Positions 16,829 to 20,229 of a stretch of DNA of 64,000 nucleotides are shown in pieces; within the stretch, counting starts at the first letter, position 1; the number at the start of each line of letters is the position of its first letter. The notes beneath the pieces were generated by a model that worked only from the letters and a program-made list of their open reading frames with translations, was not told the DNA's origin and searched no databases. The stretch lies in contig JALRHH010000002.1 in the NCBI GenBank assembly GCA_023253175.1, positions 256,199 through 320,198 on the forward strand. Reading direction: 5' to 3'. A program made the translations under genes and the position numbers. This DNA comes from Candidatus Saccharimonadia bacterium. Lineage in GTDB: Bacteria; Patescibacteriota; Saccharimonadia; Saccharimonadales; JALRHH01.

Positions 16829-18469
16829 ATGGCTAAGAAAGTATTTTACGATGATGACGCGCGCCGCAGAGTACTCGCGGGTGCAGAAATTCTCTACAGC
16901 GCAGTAAAGACAACCATGGGTCCAAAGGGCCGCAATGTTGTAATCAGCAAGAGTTTCGGTAGCCCAACAGTAACACACGATGGTGTGACGGTTGCTAAGG
17001 GTGTCGAGATCGCTGATGTTGACGACGAAACACTTGGATACAAAGTTGGCGCAGAGCTGATTAAGCAGGCCGCCAACAAGATGAATGATGTGGCTGGTGA
17101 TGGAACGACGACCGTTACTGTTTTGACCTACCACATCTTAAGCGAGGCTAATAAGTTGATTGCTGCTGGTCACAATCCAATGCTGCTCCGCAAGGGTCTC
17201 GAGGCTGCGGCGCACACGGTACTCCAAGAGCTGAGTGCATTCGCAGAAGATGTGACGGCTAAAAAGGGCCGTATCGCCGAAGTCGCGACTATCTCTGCTG
17301 GTGACAAGGAGATTGGGCAGCTGATCGCAGATATTATTGAAAAAGTAGGCAAGGACGGTGTCGTAACGGTTGAAGAAGGCCAGGGACTTGATCTTGAGTC
17401 AGAAGTTGTCGAAGGCTTTACTTTTGACCGTGGTTTCGTGAGTCCGTACATGGTGACTGACACCGCCCGCATGGAGGCCGTGTACAGTAAGCCTGCGATT
17501 GTGATTACCGACAAGAAGATCGCTTCTGTGCAGGAATTCTTGCCGCTTCTTGAAAAGCTTGCACAGGCAGGCAAGAAAGACCTCGTTTTAATCGCAGAAG
17601 ATGTTGAAGGCGAGGCCATGGGTACGCTTATCTTAAACCGTCTAAAGGGTGTATTTAATACTGTTGCCATCAAGGCTCCATCATTTGGTGACCGCCGCAA
17701 GGATGCACTGAGTGACATTGCAGTACTCACAGGTGCGACCGTGATCTCTGAAGAGCAGGGCTACACCTTTGAAAACGTTGATCTTGATGTTGTTGGTACG
17801 GCACGCAAGGTGATCGTAACCAAGGACGAGACCACGATTATTGAAGGTGCGGGTAATCCAGTTAATGTGGAAACTCGCATTGACCAAATTACTGCGCAGG
17901 CAAATGCTGCTACCAGCGAATATGACCGGGAACACCTGGAAAAGCGCCGCGCAGCACTATCTGGTAAGGTTGCAGTTATCAAAGTTGGTGGTGCGACCGA
18001 GACCGAAATCGAAGAGAAGAAGTACCGTGTTGATGACGCCGTGGCCGCCGTTAAGGCTGCGATGGCCGAAGGTATCGTGCCAGGTGGTGGTGTCACGTTG
18101 ATTAATTTAGCACAGGGTCTTAAGGCGACAGGTGATGATGCTTTTGTCGCAGGTCATCAGCTTCTTACCAGGGCACTGGAGCAACCATTCCGTATTATTT
18201 TGACGAATGCTGGACTCAACCCTGACGAGTGGCTTCCACAGGTTAAGGCAGCAAAACCAGGTCACGGCGTTGATGTGAACGATCCAAGCAAGCTTGTCGA
18301 GCTAAAGTCTGCCGGTGTGGTGGATCCTGCTCGTGTTACGAAGGAAGCAATCCAAAATGCGGTATCAATTGCTGGAACAAGTATGACAATGGGTGCACTC
18401 GTGGTTGAGGTACCTGAACCAAAGGTTGCTGCCCCTGATATGTCAGGCGCAATGGGTGGTATGATGTAA
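16829..18469 (+). CDS. groEL: chaperonin GroEL
   Basis: 546 aa; [11 protein letters not shown] motif; C-terminal GGMM tail. Confidence 0.98.
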
Positions 18470-18474
18470 GTTTC

Positions 18475-18546
18475 ATGAGGGAACCGGGATAGGTTCTCTC
18501 ATCGCGCAAGGAAATCAAAGATTTCTTTGGCTGCTCTTTCCTGAAT
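18475..18546 (+). repeat. double-hairpin element, copy A
   Basis: ATGAGGGAACC/GGTTCTCTCAT (11 bp), linker CATCGCGCA, AAGGAAATC/GATTTCTTT (9 bp), tail GGCTGCTCTTTCCTGAAT. Related copy at 19727-19802. Confidence 0.6.
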
Positions 18547-18552
18547 TTCGAT

Positions 18553-18586
18553 AAAATAGCCCGGAAGTAAATTCCTGGCTATTTTT
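18553..18586 (+). terminator. intrinsic terminator after groEL
   Basis: AAAATAGCC...GGAA-gtaaa-TTCC...GGCTATTTTT. Confidence 0.7.
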
Positions 18587-18666
18587 GATTTCATTGATGC
18601 GGTGGATTTATTGTTGCGGATTAGGCAATTATCTGGTAATATATAGTGAATTCAAGGAGTGAGCTT

Positions 18667-19110
18667 ATGGCGTTATTCAAACGAAAAAAGTCAGAATCAG
18701 TAATGCCCGAAGAGGTGCAGAATTTTTACGCGGCTGAACGACGCCAGCGCAAGGGTACCGCATGGCTTTTGGCTATCGTGACACTACTTGTAACATTCTT
18801 AATTGCATCTGCATTATTCTTTGGTGGCCGCTGGATTTACCGTGCTATTTTCGATAATGACGACAAAGCATCAACATCTCAGAACGAGTCTATTGACGAC
18901 CAAAAGTCACAGGAAAAGACTGATTCAGAGACTGCGCCGAGCAGCTCTACGACTTCACAAACACCATCCTCTGGCTCGTCATCAAACCAGAACAGTAGCA
19001 GCTCATCAAGTACTAATAATGCAGCTAATTCTGGTTCTACGGCGCAGAATGTGCCAGCGGCCGGCCCGAGCGAGCTCGTGAACACTGGTCCTGGCGACGA
19101 AAACTGGTAA
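18667..19110 (+). CDS. membrane-anchored Ser/Thr/Asn-rich protein
   Basis: AAGGAG at 18654-18659 precedes ATG 18667. One TM segment (WLLAIVTLLVTFLIASALFFG), then a low-complexity S/T/N-rich tail. Confidence 0.6.
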   Translation: MALFKRKKSESVMPEEVQNFYAAERRQRKGTAWLLAIVTLLVTFLIASALFFGGRWIYRAIFDNDDKASTSQNESIDDQKSQEKTDSETAPSSSTTSQTPSSGSSSNQNSSSSSSTNNAANSGSTAQNVPAAGPSELVNTGPGDENW

Positions 19111-19130
19111 GCGGTTGATATTTTCTATAG

Positions 19131-19160
19131 AAAACGGCAGTGAAAAATCTGCCGTTTTTT
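19131..19160 (+). terminator. intrinsic terminator
   Basis: AAAACGGCAG-tgaaaaat-CTGCCGTTTTTT. Confidence 0.8.
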
Positions 19161-19280
19161 GTGACGCAGCTCACAGCAATTGTCCAGATAAGCGCTGTAC
19201 AATAAGAGCAAACTGAGGGGGAGATTAGCTAAAGCAAGGACGATAGGTCGATATATAGGGATAAATCAAGGGGGTACTTC

Positions 19281-19646
19281 ATGAATCCAATCAGCCGACA
19301 AGATGTTCAGAACATCGTCGACATTTCACGAAACAGAATCATGGAGCGAATGGTTACAAAGCAAGATGTAGCAATGGTATCTGAGGCGCTTAAGAACTTA
19401 TTGACGCTCAGCCAACAGAATCAGCAGCTCCTGAGGCAGTCCGAACAGCAACGCATGTTGCTGGCAAGACGAGTGGCGACACTGGAAGGCAGGCTGGCTA
19501 ATTTTGAGAATGAGATGCGGGCTACCACGAACACAATTCTTAAGACGGCAGGTCAGCGACCGCAAATTGTAATGCCAGCGCCACAGCCAGAAGAGCTGCC
19601 GCAAAAGCCACAAGCGCAGTACGCATCATATTATCGACCTGCATAA
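19281..19646 (+). CDS. hypothetical coiled-coil protein
   Basis: 121-aa ORF, Q/L/E-rich heptad-like segment; SD-like AAGGGGG upstream. Confidence 0.5.
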   Translation: MNPISRQDVQNIVDISRNRIMERMVTKQDVAMVSEALKNLLTLSQQNQQLLRQSEQQRMLLARRVATLEGRLANFENEMRATTNTILKTAGQRPQIVMPAPQPEELPQKPQAQYASYYRPA

Positions 19647-19674
19647 AAAGAACCGGAATTACCCGGTTCTTTTT
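19645..19674. terminator. bidirectional intrinsic terminator
   Basis: AAAAAGAACCGG-aattac-CCGGTTCTTTTT. Confidence 0.8.
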
Positions 19675-19726
19675 CGAATATAACAGTATGTGTTAGTTGT
19701 GATGCTGCTGCGTGAAGTAGCTCTTT

Positions 19727-19802
19727 ATGAGAGGGGAGTATCCCCTCTCATCGCGCAGGGCGCGGAATAAATCCGCGCATCTGGCTGCTCTCCCCTATGA
19801 AT
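19727..19802 (+). repeat. double-hairpin element, copy B
   Basis: ATGAGAGGGGA/TCCCCTCTCAT (11 bp perfect), linker CATCGCGCA, GCGCGGA/TCCGCGC (7 bp), tail GGCTGCTCTCCCCTATGAAT. Confidence 0.6.
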
Positions 19803-20229
19803 GGTGCTGCTGCGTGAAGTAGTTTATTTCATTGATGATGTCGAGAAGCGCCTGTGCACGGTTCTTGTCATCTTCGATGGCCTTGGCTGCCTCGTAGGCT
19901 TCACGAAGTAAGCTCTGATCATCTGAGGCTTGGATCATCATCATCGTAGTGCGGAATTTTTCCTCTGGTGACTGTTCGAGGTGTCCAACGAGCGGGCTGA
20001 GCGCCTGTAGGGCTTCTTGCTTAATGTCGAGAAGTTCATCCGAACCATTAACAGGTACTGCGGTGGGTTCGGTTACCGGTGCCGAAGCAGCAGTGTCATC
20101 GGCTACTGGTGCTGTAGTCGGCTGAGCGCCGTCTTGATTAACTGGGCCTGCAGATCCAGGTGCTGGGCTGCCGAAACCGCCTTGTGAAAAGAAGTCACTT
20201 GCCGCATCATTAATGTCTTGTCCGAACAT
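19795..20229 (-). CDS. hypothetical acidic protein
   Basis: 144-aa ORF with an Ala/Pro/Gly-rich N-terminal half. The last 8 codons are duplicated downstream at 19693-19720. Confidence 0.5.
   Translation of the reverse strand: MFGQDINDAASDFFSQGGFGSPAPGSAGPVNQDGAQPTTAPVADDTAASAPVTEPTAVPVNGSDELLDIKQEALQALSPLVGHLEQSPEEKFRTTMMMIQASDDQSLLREAYEAAKAIEDDKNRAQALLDIINEINYFTQQHHS

Follow-up and report, generated by a model that had tools for sequence, protein, structure and literature searches.

Saccharibacteria genomes are among the smallest and most compact of bacteria. Among the short structured repeats of bacteria, REP/REPIN sequences are imperfect palindromes of ~20-40 nt with a GTAG head that often occur as inverted doublets, are associated with a RAYT gene and produce no target duplication. 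REPs form strand-specific hairpins in operon junctions and at 3' ends, and roles in mRNA stability have been proposed. The prokaryotic miniature inverted-repeat elements known as MITEs (Correia/NEMIS, ERIC, RUP, Chunjie and QMITE) are <500 bp, non-coding and dispersed, are bounded by terminal inverted repeats of ~4-30 bp, carry direct repeats when young and, frequently located in 3' UTRs or operons, are transcribed to stable stem-loops (PMC10969869). MIRUs insert at gene junctions within operons and contain an internal ORF whose translation is coupled to that of the gene downstream, so that the harm of insertion is kept to a minimum (PMC12548453). With respect to structure, RNA triplexes of the MALAT1/ENE type are reported to protect RNA 3' ends (PMC6379651, PMC10159000).

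The window, which is the whole 64-kb stretch of DNA that we analysed, contains two elements, copies A and B. They are members of a family of small DNA repeats with tight folds that lie beside gene ends and have not been described before. The features of the two loci, all on the + strand, are as follows.

18475-18542, +: copy A, two hairpins and tail; the model match spans 18473-18549
18475..18502, +: copy A hairpin P1, ATGAGGGAACC / loop GGGATA / GGTTCTCTCAT, 11 pairs including one G.T
18504..18531, +: copy A hairpin P2, GC.CAAGGAAATC / AAA / GATTTCTTTG GC on the conserved base GCGCA...UGGC
18534..18542, +: copy A pyrimidine tail CTCTTTCCT, which mirrors the P1 3' arm
18553..18589, +: groEL terminator hairpin with loop GAAGTAAATTC, and T-run (inverted repeat I5)
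19700..19720, +: left target-site duplication of copy B, TGATGCTGCTGCGTGAAGTAG (direct repeat D1, spacing 102)
19721..19801, +: copy B insert, 81 nt (alignment of filled with empty orthologous sites, model match and fold)
19727-19796, +: copy B, two hairpins and tail; the model match spans 19725-19803
Parts of copy B, +: 5' extension CTCTTT; P1 19727-19751; P2 19753-19785; tail 19788-19796; 3' extension ending CTATGAA
19802..19822, +: right target-site duplication of copy B, TGGTGCTGCTGCGTGAAGTAG (direct repeat; comparison of filled and empty sites)

The positions given in a first-pass annotation of this DNA hold. Copy A starts 5 nt past the groEL stop (the ORF ends at 18469 and ATGAG begins at 18475), and copy B overlaps the stop codon of 19795-20229, the minus-strand gene whose 3' end it adjoins. 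The blocks ATGAG, CTCTCATCGCGCA, TGGCTGCTCT and CCT are indeed common to the two copies. TGAAT, also listed as shared, is coincidental: in copy B it is made up of the 3' extension of the insert and the first bases of the target duplication. Each copy folds into two hairpins, as had been described (MFE fold, -29.4 and -39.2 kcal/mol, z -3.9 and -4.1). About five covarying pairs had been proposed for hairpin 1; read from the sequence, four are compensatory double changes between A and B and the fifth is a single change. A covariance model trained on other genomes only detected copy A with 64.3 bits (E 4.5e-17) and copy B with 55.9 bits (E 1.3e-14). Because a model built without them recovers both, the similarity of A and B is beyond chance. 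Two covariance models run with filters off detected no further copies in the 64-kb window. No two copies in the window are near-identical, so nothing points to a recent burst of the element here, which counts against a currently spreading family. A weak 22-nt similarity between 18585-18606 and 19823-19844 was judged to be chance.

As the first-pass annotation had supposed, the element falls outside the known families, here those of RNA: copies A and B had no match in Rfam 15, using gathering thresholds on the whole window and E up to 10 on 18400-19900. Type-1 copies from five loci gave no match at E up to 0.1, and we found no description of the family in the literature. A 21-base pattern derived from A and B occurs at at least 119 genome loci, ~97 of them from Saccharibacteria. 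The suggested covariance-model scan of relatives yielded >120 additional copies; 720 kb of sequence from ~75 species contained 123 copies, cross-species counts that are not phylogenetically independent. All hosts were assigned to the Saccharibacteria (TM7), to which the family is restricted. Two scans of viral contigs returned pattern matches and zero model matches; we consider those to be chance or coding matches and rejected a phage origin. The elements are 75-135 nt long, non-coding and present in many dispersed copies, and the earlier preference for a DNA-level dispersed repeat with conserved structure over a simple 3' UTR motif is borne out. P2 is ≥90% similar in 22% of same-genome pairs compared with 1% of between-genome pairs.

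Copy B is a recent gain, flanked by a 21-nt target-site duplication, and took the place of the final codon and stop in a conserved gene. Its site is filled in the window and in L130 and empty in six orthologous loci (L129, L204, L205, L206, L131 and L207), two of them from relatives that are ~93% identical. The empty site of L204 reads TTAGTTGTGGTGCTGCTGCGTGAAGTAG followed directly by TTTATTTC. The right duplication still encodes the C-terminal YFTQQHH of the minus-strand gene, and its last codon and stop (TCA TAG, minus strand) are now supplied by the 3' extension of the element. Positions 19693-19699 together with the left duplication are a relic of the original gene end (...YFTQQHHN, stop).

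The empty sites also bear on the idea that a mobile cassette of two genes (18667-19110 and 19281-19646) is bounded by, or recombines at, copies A and B, as their shared orientation and the genes between them might suggest. The first-pass annotation had tied the copies to this module and had proposed comparing genomes for its presence or absence. The six orthologous loci retain the neighbours without copy B, and both genes are kept in four of them (L129, L205, L206 and L207). Nor do the copies form a linked pair, since copy A is an independent and much older resident of the groEL 3' UTR. A and B belong to different subfamilies and have independent histories. The empty-site loci refute the cassette, which we regard as extremely improbable.

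The whole family is mobile, as seen from gains at new sites with target duplications of 14-50 bp. Direct repeats of 11-50 nt flank 27 copies, including a perfect 49-mer in L104, and junctions between ribosomal-protein genes are occupied in some species and empty in others. The duplications are long and variable (14, 17, 21, 23, 28, 29, 49 and 50 nt), with no common target motif. Filled and empty sites define the ends as CTC(T/A)TTATGAG... and ...GCTGCTCTCCCC, which are not inverted complements of each other. The ends are ragged, with heterogeneous 5' and 3' extensions and filler nucleotides, and in young insertions the 3' boundary lies just past the tail. Among ~125 matches there were no truncated copies; partial matches were the reverse strand of P1. 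We consider it likely that the family consists of Saccharibacteria-specific interspersed elements, ~75-95 nt long, gained at new sites by non-autonomous copy-and-paste.

Dispersed copies, target duplications and filled/empty polymorphism are also what a transposase-driven DNA element would leave, either a MITE-like derivative of a long-stagger insertion sequence or a single-strand hairpin transposon. Transposases of the IS1634 type cut with a long, variable stagger, and a hairpin near either end recalls single-strand transposons. However, no terminal inverted repeats are present at the boundaries set by the filled/empty comparison, where the ends are heterogeneous, and IS200/IS605-type elements make no target duplication. 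ORF clustering in ~100 loci detected no transposase beside the copies, and the recurrent neighbours were ribosomal proteins. We regard a transposase-driven element as improbable. We also searched for a mobilising gene of any kind: 30 large ORFs from the parts of the window outside the locus annotation had only housekeeping matches in Pfam, and the window and 20-kb regions of relatives contained only housekeeping genes, which counts against the copy-and-paste reading.

All copies share one architecture on one strand, comprising a hairpin with a purine arm (P1), a 1-base linker, a second hairpin (P2), a UG linker and a pyrimidine tail. Both hairpins covary strongly across the family. Paired cells amount to 96.3% compared to 84.8% in shuffles, and the covariation score is 0.293 versus 0.083 for shuffles (0/500 reach the observed value), with slid controls at 0.03-0.125. 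The base of P2 contains a conserved G.U pair, and compensatory changes at this base also occur in copies without the search pattern. The strand asymmetry of wobble pairs is weak, with the top strand 0.86 kcal/mol more stable (p = 0.01). P1 of copy A is backed by the MFE fold, by the family covariation in P1 and by the model match.

The sequence of the pyrimidine tail mirrors the pyrimidine arm of P1 across the family and follows the purine arm in parallel, with U for A and C for G. The run-length rule nA = nU holds for 81% of 75 unique arm/tail combinations, compared to 33% after permutation. The first-pass annotation had offered an alternative fold in which tail and 5' arm of hairpin 1 pair with each other; such antiparallel pairing extends over at most 6 bp in non-homologous registers, and the rule across the family is parallel. 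This parallel covariation could be the signature of an intramolecular triple helix, since at the level of sequence rules the tail behaves as a pyrimidine-motif third strand (parallel, with U(T) on A-U and C on G-C). C facing C-G pairs at the top of P1 is a non-canonical triple. In copy A, the tail could be the third strand of a Y*R-Y triplex on GAGGGAACC, and copy B has nine potential canonical triples.

The subfamilies differ in how they are oriented to transcription. The main subfamily, type 1, is antisense in a ratio of 48:3 and occupies junctions of ribosomal-protein, rpoBC and tRNA genes. We rejected the replication direction as the determinant of orientation, as A and B are sense to the dominant coding strand and type-1 copies are antisense. 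Each junction holds a single unit, and there are no tandem arrays or doublets. By-eye inspection of both strands for a promoter gave only poor -35/-10 matches. Of 23 copies at stop/start junctions, 22 have a duplication spacing of 2 mod 3. Some 50 junction copies include an in-frame ORF of 28-53 aa with a ribosome-binding site and start codon, which terminates on the start codon of the following gene; copies A and B have no such mini-ORF. This ORF could be taken to mean that the family is a small protein gene on the opposite strand (an M..REKSSQ..LRDEKN.. peptide). Element lengths that change by non-multiples of 3 and hairpin substitutions that preserve base pairs, not amino acids, speak against a protein-coding opposite strand, a reading that we rejected. 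Moreover, A, B and many other copies have stops in that frame, and the conserved nucleotides remain conserved outside any ORF. A peptide gene is thus very improbable.

Sense copies lie 2-7 nt past a stop codon and ahead of a terminator. Copy A is one of these and is an old, long-resident orthologous element of the groEL 3' UTR, where no target duplication is detectable around it. The groEL 3' UTR copy is orthologous in six species, with the fold maintained through many compensatory changes. The tail rule is kept as well: a G.T pair with a tail T in the window corresponds to a G-C pair with a tail C in L207, and an additional G is paralleled by an additional C. A scan flagged P2 of copy A followed by GCTGCTCTTT as terminator-like, but its U-run is interrupted. 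The canonical terminator lies downstream at 18553-18589, and most copies of the family are antisense within operons. A comparable terminator hairpin is found 3' of sense-oriented copies in L129, L206, L093 and L115.

Retention at groEL in six species could mean selection for a function in cis instead of selfish spread, and so could a near-invariant P2 variant that adjoins tRNA genes in many species. The elements would then be primarily cis-acting motifs that stabilise mRNA 3' ends, act as processing signals, or serve highly expressed operons as sites for DNA topology or protein binding, and the duplication would be incidental. The compensatory changes at the groEL orthologues, the enrichment of copies at ribosomal-protein, rpoBC and tRNA loci, and the almost unchanging tRNA-adjacent P2 across species are in line with this possibility. 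The window also encodes PNPase and RNase J, so that a block to 3' decay has a target. Against it, the orientation to transcription is not constant between subfamilies, and at operon junctions ribosomes must traverse the complementary strand, so that RNA structure cannot persist at these sites. Further, the same junction is dispensable in sister species, and copy B was recently gained and damaged a gene end. As a general explanation, selection in cis is possible but doubtful. It is compatible with mobility and may apply to some exapted copies such as copy A.

Returning to non-autonomous copy-and-paste, we propose that the folded single strand (P1, P2 and the putative intramolecular Y*R-Y triplex) would be recognised by a trans-acting enzyme of the host or a partner, and that the same fold would shield the 3' end of the intermediate. 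If integration took place at a pair of staggered nicks with loose spacing that were then filled in, this would account for the long variable duplications and the filler nucleotides. Only harmless copies would persist. Sense copies would do so between a stop codon and a terminator, and antisense copies would survive in intercistronic junctions where the duplication restores both gene ends and the in-frame mini-ORF would maintain translational coupling. Copy A and other resident sense copies would be transcribed as part of the mRNA, where the compact fold is plausibly a decay block.

A more specific possibility is a SINE-like retroelement, in which an RNA of ~80 nt with a triplex-locked 3' tail, transcribed for example from sense 3' UTR copies of highly expressed genes, would be copied by a host reverse transcriptase at a nicked target beside gene ends, with the second nick 14-50 bp away. 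The variable duplications, ragged extensions, filler nucleotides and lack of terminal inverted repeats fit this account, as do the strand-specific fold with its conserved G.U at the P2 base and the 3' boundary of young insertions directly after the tail. However, bacteria are not known to carry out target-primed reverse transcription of non-intron RNA, which weighs against it. The tail is a structured pyrimidine tract and not A-rich or a simple repeat, none of the ~125 matches is 5'-truncated, and neither the window nor the other loci retrieved showed a reverse transcriptase. On balance we consider a SINE-like origin unlikely, even counting in its favour the one DGR reverse transcriptase per genome reported for environmental Saccharibacteria (bioRxiv 10.1101/258137).

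Compact as they are, Saccharibacteria genomes tolerate dozens of copies of a structured repeat, even in ribosomal-protein and RNA-polymerase operons. Because no standard bacterial transposition chemistry fits long variable duplications, ragged ends and a lack of inverted repeats, the family makes the mechanism by which such elements move directly testable. If the SINE-like account were true, a retroposon would populate even the ribosomal-protein operons of a ~1-Mb genome, with some copies exapted in the groEL 3' UTR and in tRNA leaders. The covariation of purine arm, pyrimidine arm and tail is a rare candidate for a natural triple helix recognisable from nothing more than the sequence. For annotation, the elements give rise to spurious small ORFs, change the ends of genes (in this window, the C-terminus of a conserved protein) and flag Saccharibacteria contigs mis-binned to other phyla.

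We compared the family to the described systems. Like MITEs, it is smaller than ~500 bp, non-coding and dispersed in multiple copies, whereas it lacks terminal inverted repeats, its duplications are much longer and variable instead of short and of fixed length, its ends are ragged, and no parent insertion sequence was found in the window or in ~100 loci. It resembles REP/REPIN sequences as a short structured extragenic repeat at operon junctions and 3' ends. It differs in having two distinct hairpins and a tail in one orientation instead of a GTAG-headed palindrome or doublets, in its target duplications, and in that no RAYT-like gene is present in the window. Elements derived from IS200/IS605 (PATE) insert 3' of a fixed tetra- or pentanucleotide without duplication, and neither applies here. 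Rickettsia palindromic elements (RPEs) are likewise structured, translation-compatible repeats in essential genes of a reduced genome, but they are in-frame fusions inside ORFs; our elements lie at or after gene ends and their duplication restores both neighbours. With MIRUs, the type-1 subfamily shares a coupled junction ORF (~50 copies, with the 2 mod 3 spacing in 22/23). However, MIRUs are tandem-array units of Mycobacterium for which no conserved two-hairpin fold is described, whereas this family is single-copy per site, strongly structured and flanked by 14-50-bp target duplications. It also has sense 3' UTR and tRNA-flanking copies, and A and B have no mini-ORF. With SINEs and non-LTR elements the family has in common that its duplications vary in length, that inverted repeats are lacking, and that the body is structured like an RNA and has a defined 3' end; SINEs are eukaryotic, and here there is no A-rich tail, no internal promoter was identified and 5' truncation is absent. 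Finally, the putative triplex would be built like the ENE and the R-loop-Y-loop-Y DNA foldback: a purine strand is joined by one pyrimidine strand through Watson-Crick pairs and by another that runs parallel to the purines, the triples are U.A-U and C+.G-C, and the helix is interrupted midway. In the ENE an A-rich tract, which a U-rich loop clamps, forms the third element, whereas here, judging from covariation, the tail is the candidate Hoogsteen pyrimidine strand and hairpin P2 would serve as the connecting loop.

Copies A and B, two similar double-hairpin elements, lie on the plus strand of the window among the following features:

16829-18469, plus strand: groEL
about 18475-18546, plus strand: copy A, beginning 5 nt 3' of groEL
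18553-18585: terminator hairpin with loop GAAGUAAAUUC, after copy A
18667-19110 and 19281-19646: two genes between copies A and B
about 19727-19802, plus strand: copy B, overlapping the stop codon of the next gene
19795-20229, minus strand: gene for a 144-aa protein

The first-pass annotation described this arrangement accurately, including the groEL spacing, the overlap, the shared blocks (ATGAG, CTCTCATCGCGCA, TGGCTGCTCT and CCT) and the two hairpins of each copy. Folding z-scores are near -4, and between A and B hairpin 1 (P1; purine 5' arm, pyrimidine 3' arm) shows four double changes and one single change, with pairing kept. An exact motif search and a covariance model with filters off found no third copy in the window. 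Coding in the window is strongly on the plus strand (~46 kb vs 12 kb), ORFs with a Pfam match are housekeeping (ValRS, DnaG, RpoD, PolA, Fpg, HolA, TruB, PNPase, RNase J, UDG), and the whole 64 kb (1-64000) has no tRNA, rRNA or other Rfam matches. A 22-nt direct similarity (82%) between 18585-18606, 3' of the copy A terminator, and 19823-19844, 3' of the copy B duplication and coding (DIINEIN), is probably due to chance.

We scanned one genome per species with a 21-base pattern from two shared blocks (CTCATCGCGCA, 10-40 nt, TGGCTGCTCT) and obtained at least 119 loci. Among the 119 matches listed, 22, in G+C-rich genomes from other phyla, were due to chance and ~97 were in Saccharibacteria/Saccharimonadales MAGs or MAGs named only 'bacterium'; these species counts do not equal independent events. 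Scanning relatives with a covariance model, as had been proposed from the sequence alone, recovered 123 copies in 720 kb of pattern-matched loci (first model, 82 sequences), about 20 of which lack the search pattern. A second model, built without window sequences, gave 64.3 bits (E 4.5e-17) for copy A and 55.9 bits (E 1.3e-14) for copy B, so their membership of the family is independent of circular training. Seeding the set from an exact pattern leaves divergent members under-sampled; the groEL copy of L129, a locus from a close relative, scores only 21.8 bits. Copy density, roughly estimated from the window and fetched loci, is one per 30-35 kb. Rfam 15 holds no family matching the window copies or the commonest subtype (type 1), two scans of viral contigs gave only non-homologous pattern matches, and we found no description of the family in the literature searched. 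Contigs of species-representative genomes labelled Nevskiaceae (L071; DATLCF010000002.1, 557 kb), Acidobacteriota (L059), Gemmatimonadaceae (L037) and Binatia (L098) carry genuine elements within ribosomal-protein or tRNA loci of Saccharibacteria type and are probably mis-binned or mislabelled. The element could mark Saccharibacteria contigs.

The fold is conserved across the family. The type 1 consensus is AUGAGACAAACC-loop-GGUUUUUCUCAU-C-GCGCAGGG-[variable hairpin]-CUCUGGC-UG-CUCUUUUCCC. In the 82-sequence alignment, in which the search-pattern positions are necessarily invariant, standard pairs fill 96.3% of cells (84.8% when shuffled), double changes occur at 10 of 19 pairs, and the covariation score is 0.293, compared with 0.083 for shuffled alignments (0 of 500 reach 0.293) and 0.03-0.125 with partners slid. 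Compensatory changes at the pattern positions occur in copies found only by the model, e.g., CGCGC-A...U-GGC to C...G or G...C. The strand bearing the tail (the pyrimidine tract 3' of hairpin 2, P2) folds better than its complement by a mean of 0.86 kcal/mol (50 copies vs 28, p = 0.01), largely because of a conserved G.U at the P2 base; this is only modest evidence for strand specificity. Six copies carry a structured insertion of ~35-45 nt inside P1 (L073:3361-3493, L074:1051-1186, L084:515-649, L094:981-1116, L082:554-677, L095:5134-5260) and P2 is much longer in L051, L064 and L088; these are possibly nested or modular versions. One P2 variant, GGCAAAAUGG-NNN-ACAUUUUGUC, is nearly the same in many species (L043, L066, L075, L083, L089, L090, L098, L103, L105, L110, L112) and directly adjoins a tRNA gene (Asn, Tyr/Thr, Ser, Arg, Asp) in L043, L089, L090, L098 and L105; other P2 variants are genome-specific.

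The tail had initially been read as pairing antiparallel with the P1 5' arm; family-wide, the two run parallel instead. Conserved GAGA in the arm stands opposite conserved CUCU in the tail and, beyond a single skipped position, either a C x U mismatch or an additional pair, the A run in the arm equals the U run in the tail. Of 75 unique arm/tail combinations, which are not phylogenetically independent, 81% follow this rule, vs 33% when permuted (maximum 53% in 5000 permutations). C-rich tails accompany G-rich arms, and in copy B GAGAGGGGA opposite CUCUCCCCU gives nine potential canonical triples. Among groEL orthologues, a G.U pair goes with tail U in the window and a G-C pair with tail C in L207, and the L129 copy has an extra G-C pair (AUGGAG/CUCCAU) together with an extra tail C (GCCUCU); by these three-way changes the tail base is the Watson-Crick pyrimidine at the same level. 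The rule is exactly that of an intramolecular pyrimidine-motif triple helix, and the covariation points to a candidate triplex in which a purine strand is followed by two pyrimidine strands, all joined by loops, the second of which is P2. At the top of P1, C opposite C-G pairs makes a non-canonical triple.

Copy A is a groEL 3' UTR copy, and the same position is occupied in five fetched loci (L129, L206, L207, L093, L115), each time between the GGMM stop and the terminator. These copies differ greatly in P1 interiors, P2 and linkers. Between the window (18475-18546) and L129 (2474-2536), close relatives with a 93% identical neighbouring protein, about half of the element positions differ while the flanks are ~85-90% identical, which suggests replacement or conversion at a fixed site, or rapid fold-preserving change. 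No target duplication is recognisable around copy A.

Eight orthologous loci, reached through homologues of the 144-aa protein, show copy B to be a lineage-restricted insertion. Its site is empty in six (L129 and L204, ~93% protein identity; L205, 83%; L206, 79%; L131, 75%; L207, 71%) and filled only in the window and L130 (81%). At the empty site of L204, TTAGTTGTGGTGCTGCTGCGTGAAGTAG is followed directly by TTTATTTC; the window has the same sequence plus an 81-base insert (19721-19801) and a repeat of the last 21 bases (19802-19822). The 3' extension of the insert, CTATGAA, provides the present last codon and stop of 19795-20229, changing ...HHN-stop to ...HHS-stop. L130 shares the subtype and left junction and has a 28-nt duplication and shorter 3' extension, so the two insertions were probably separate events. 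The first-pass annotation noted that A and B bracket two genes; both intervening genes occur in relatives without copy B, so the copies are not the limits of a cassette. The 144-aa protein belongs to a widespread uncharacterised family (>4400 homologues at E ≤ 1e-3, 'hypothetical protein' where named at all); it carries no Pfam domain, and its C-terminal half (SPEEKFRTTMMMIQASDD...NEINYFTQQHH) is very conserved.

In the family as a whole, direct repeats of 11-50 nt flank 27 copies; among these repeats are a perfect 49-mer (L104), a 50-mer with three mismatches (L113) and others of 29, 28, 23, 22 and 21 nt. Variable bases (3-12 on the 5' side, 3-25 on the 3' side) separate the conserved core from the duplication. 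P2 is ≥90% similar in 22% of same-genome pairs vs 1% of between-species pairs. The aligned loci demonstrate insertion with long variable duplications and filled/empty polymorphism.

Clustering of mechanically called ORFs from ~100 loci gave ribosomal proteins as recurrent neighbours. Occupied junctions include L29-S17, S3-L16, L3-L4, L23-L2, L22-S3, L5-S14, L13-S9, L36-S13, S5-L15 and rpoB-rpoC; several (e.g., S3-L16, L22-S3, L5-S14, L36-S13) carry a copy in some species, and other species have the empty form, with the usual overlapping stop/start, e.g., AAGGAGAACAAGTAATG. In junction copies the duplicated segment comprises the ribosome-binding site, stop and start. Since the duplication spacing is 2 mod 3 in 22 of 23, the complement forms a mini-ORF of 28-53 aa (M-x-(R/K)EKSSQ-x-LRDEKN-...), and the mini-ORF stop overlaps the start codon that follows. 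Type 1 copies are antisense to flanking genes (48:3) and other subtypes are mixed. Across the loci compared, orientation depends on context and frame is kept in operon junctions. Sense copies lie 2-7 nt 3' of a stop codon and precede a terminator hairpin, often with loop GAAGUAAAUUC. This loop (variants GGAAUGAAUCC, GAAAUAAAUUC) also occurs in P2 of many elements (e.g., L008, L014, L071) and is absent from other window terminators (19645-19674, ~19132-19160). Where copies adjoin tRNA genes, 5-13 nt separate them from the 5' end of a divergent gene, or 4 nt from a 3' end that they follow. At L066:5346-5435 and L078:4516-4606 the flanks resemble tRNA ends where ARAGORN calls no tRNA; these may be intron-containing tRNA genes, as described for Patescibacteria (PMC13011429).

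We propose a non-autonomous copy-and-paste element whose folded single strand would be recognised by a trans-acting enzyme and integrated at staggered, loosely spaced nicks that are then filled in. A selection filter would decide survival: the long duplication would regenerate both neighbours, the mini-ORF would preserve translational coupling at operon junctions, and sense copies would be tolerated only between stop codon and terminator, where their compact fold may block decay (genes for PNPase and RNase J are in the window). The window encodes no transposase, integrase or reverse transcriptase. Ragged ends, variable duplications and the lack of terminal inverted repeats across the family are nearer to retroposition than to DDE or HUH transposition. 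SINE-like retroposition through an RNA intermediate is nonetheless unlikely: no reverse transcriptase was found in the material examined, the element has no A-rich tail, and no truncated copies were seen across the family. The intermediate of the proposed copy-and-paste element may be RNA or single-stranded DNA, and only a demonstrated RNA-mediated mechanism would make the family categorically new.

We compared the family to known repeat systems. A mini-ORF coupling arrangement like that of the junction copies is reported for mycobacterial MIRUs (PMC12548453), but MIRUs form tandem arrays. MITEs share dispersion and duplications but are defined by inverted repeats, and REPs, likewise structured extragenic repeats, by a GTAG palindrome. 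Rickettsia palindromic elements also invade essential genes of a reduced genome, but as in-frame fusions. With no tandem arrays, inverted repeats, GTAG palindrome or in-frame fusions, the family bears the defining feature of none of these systems.
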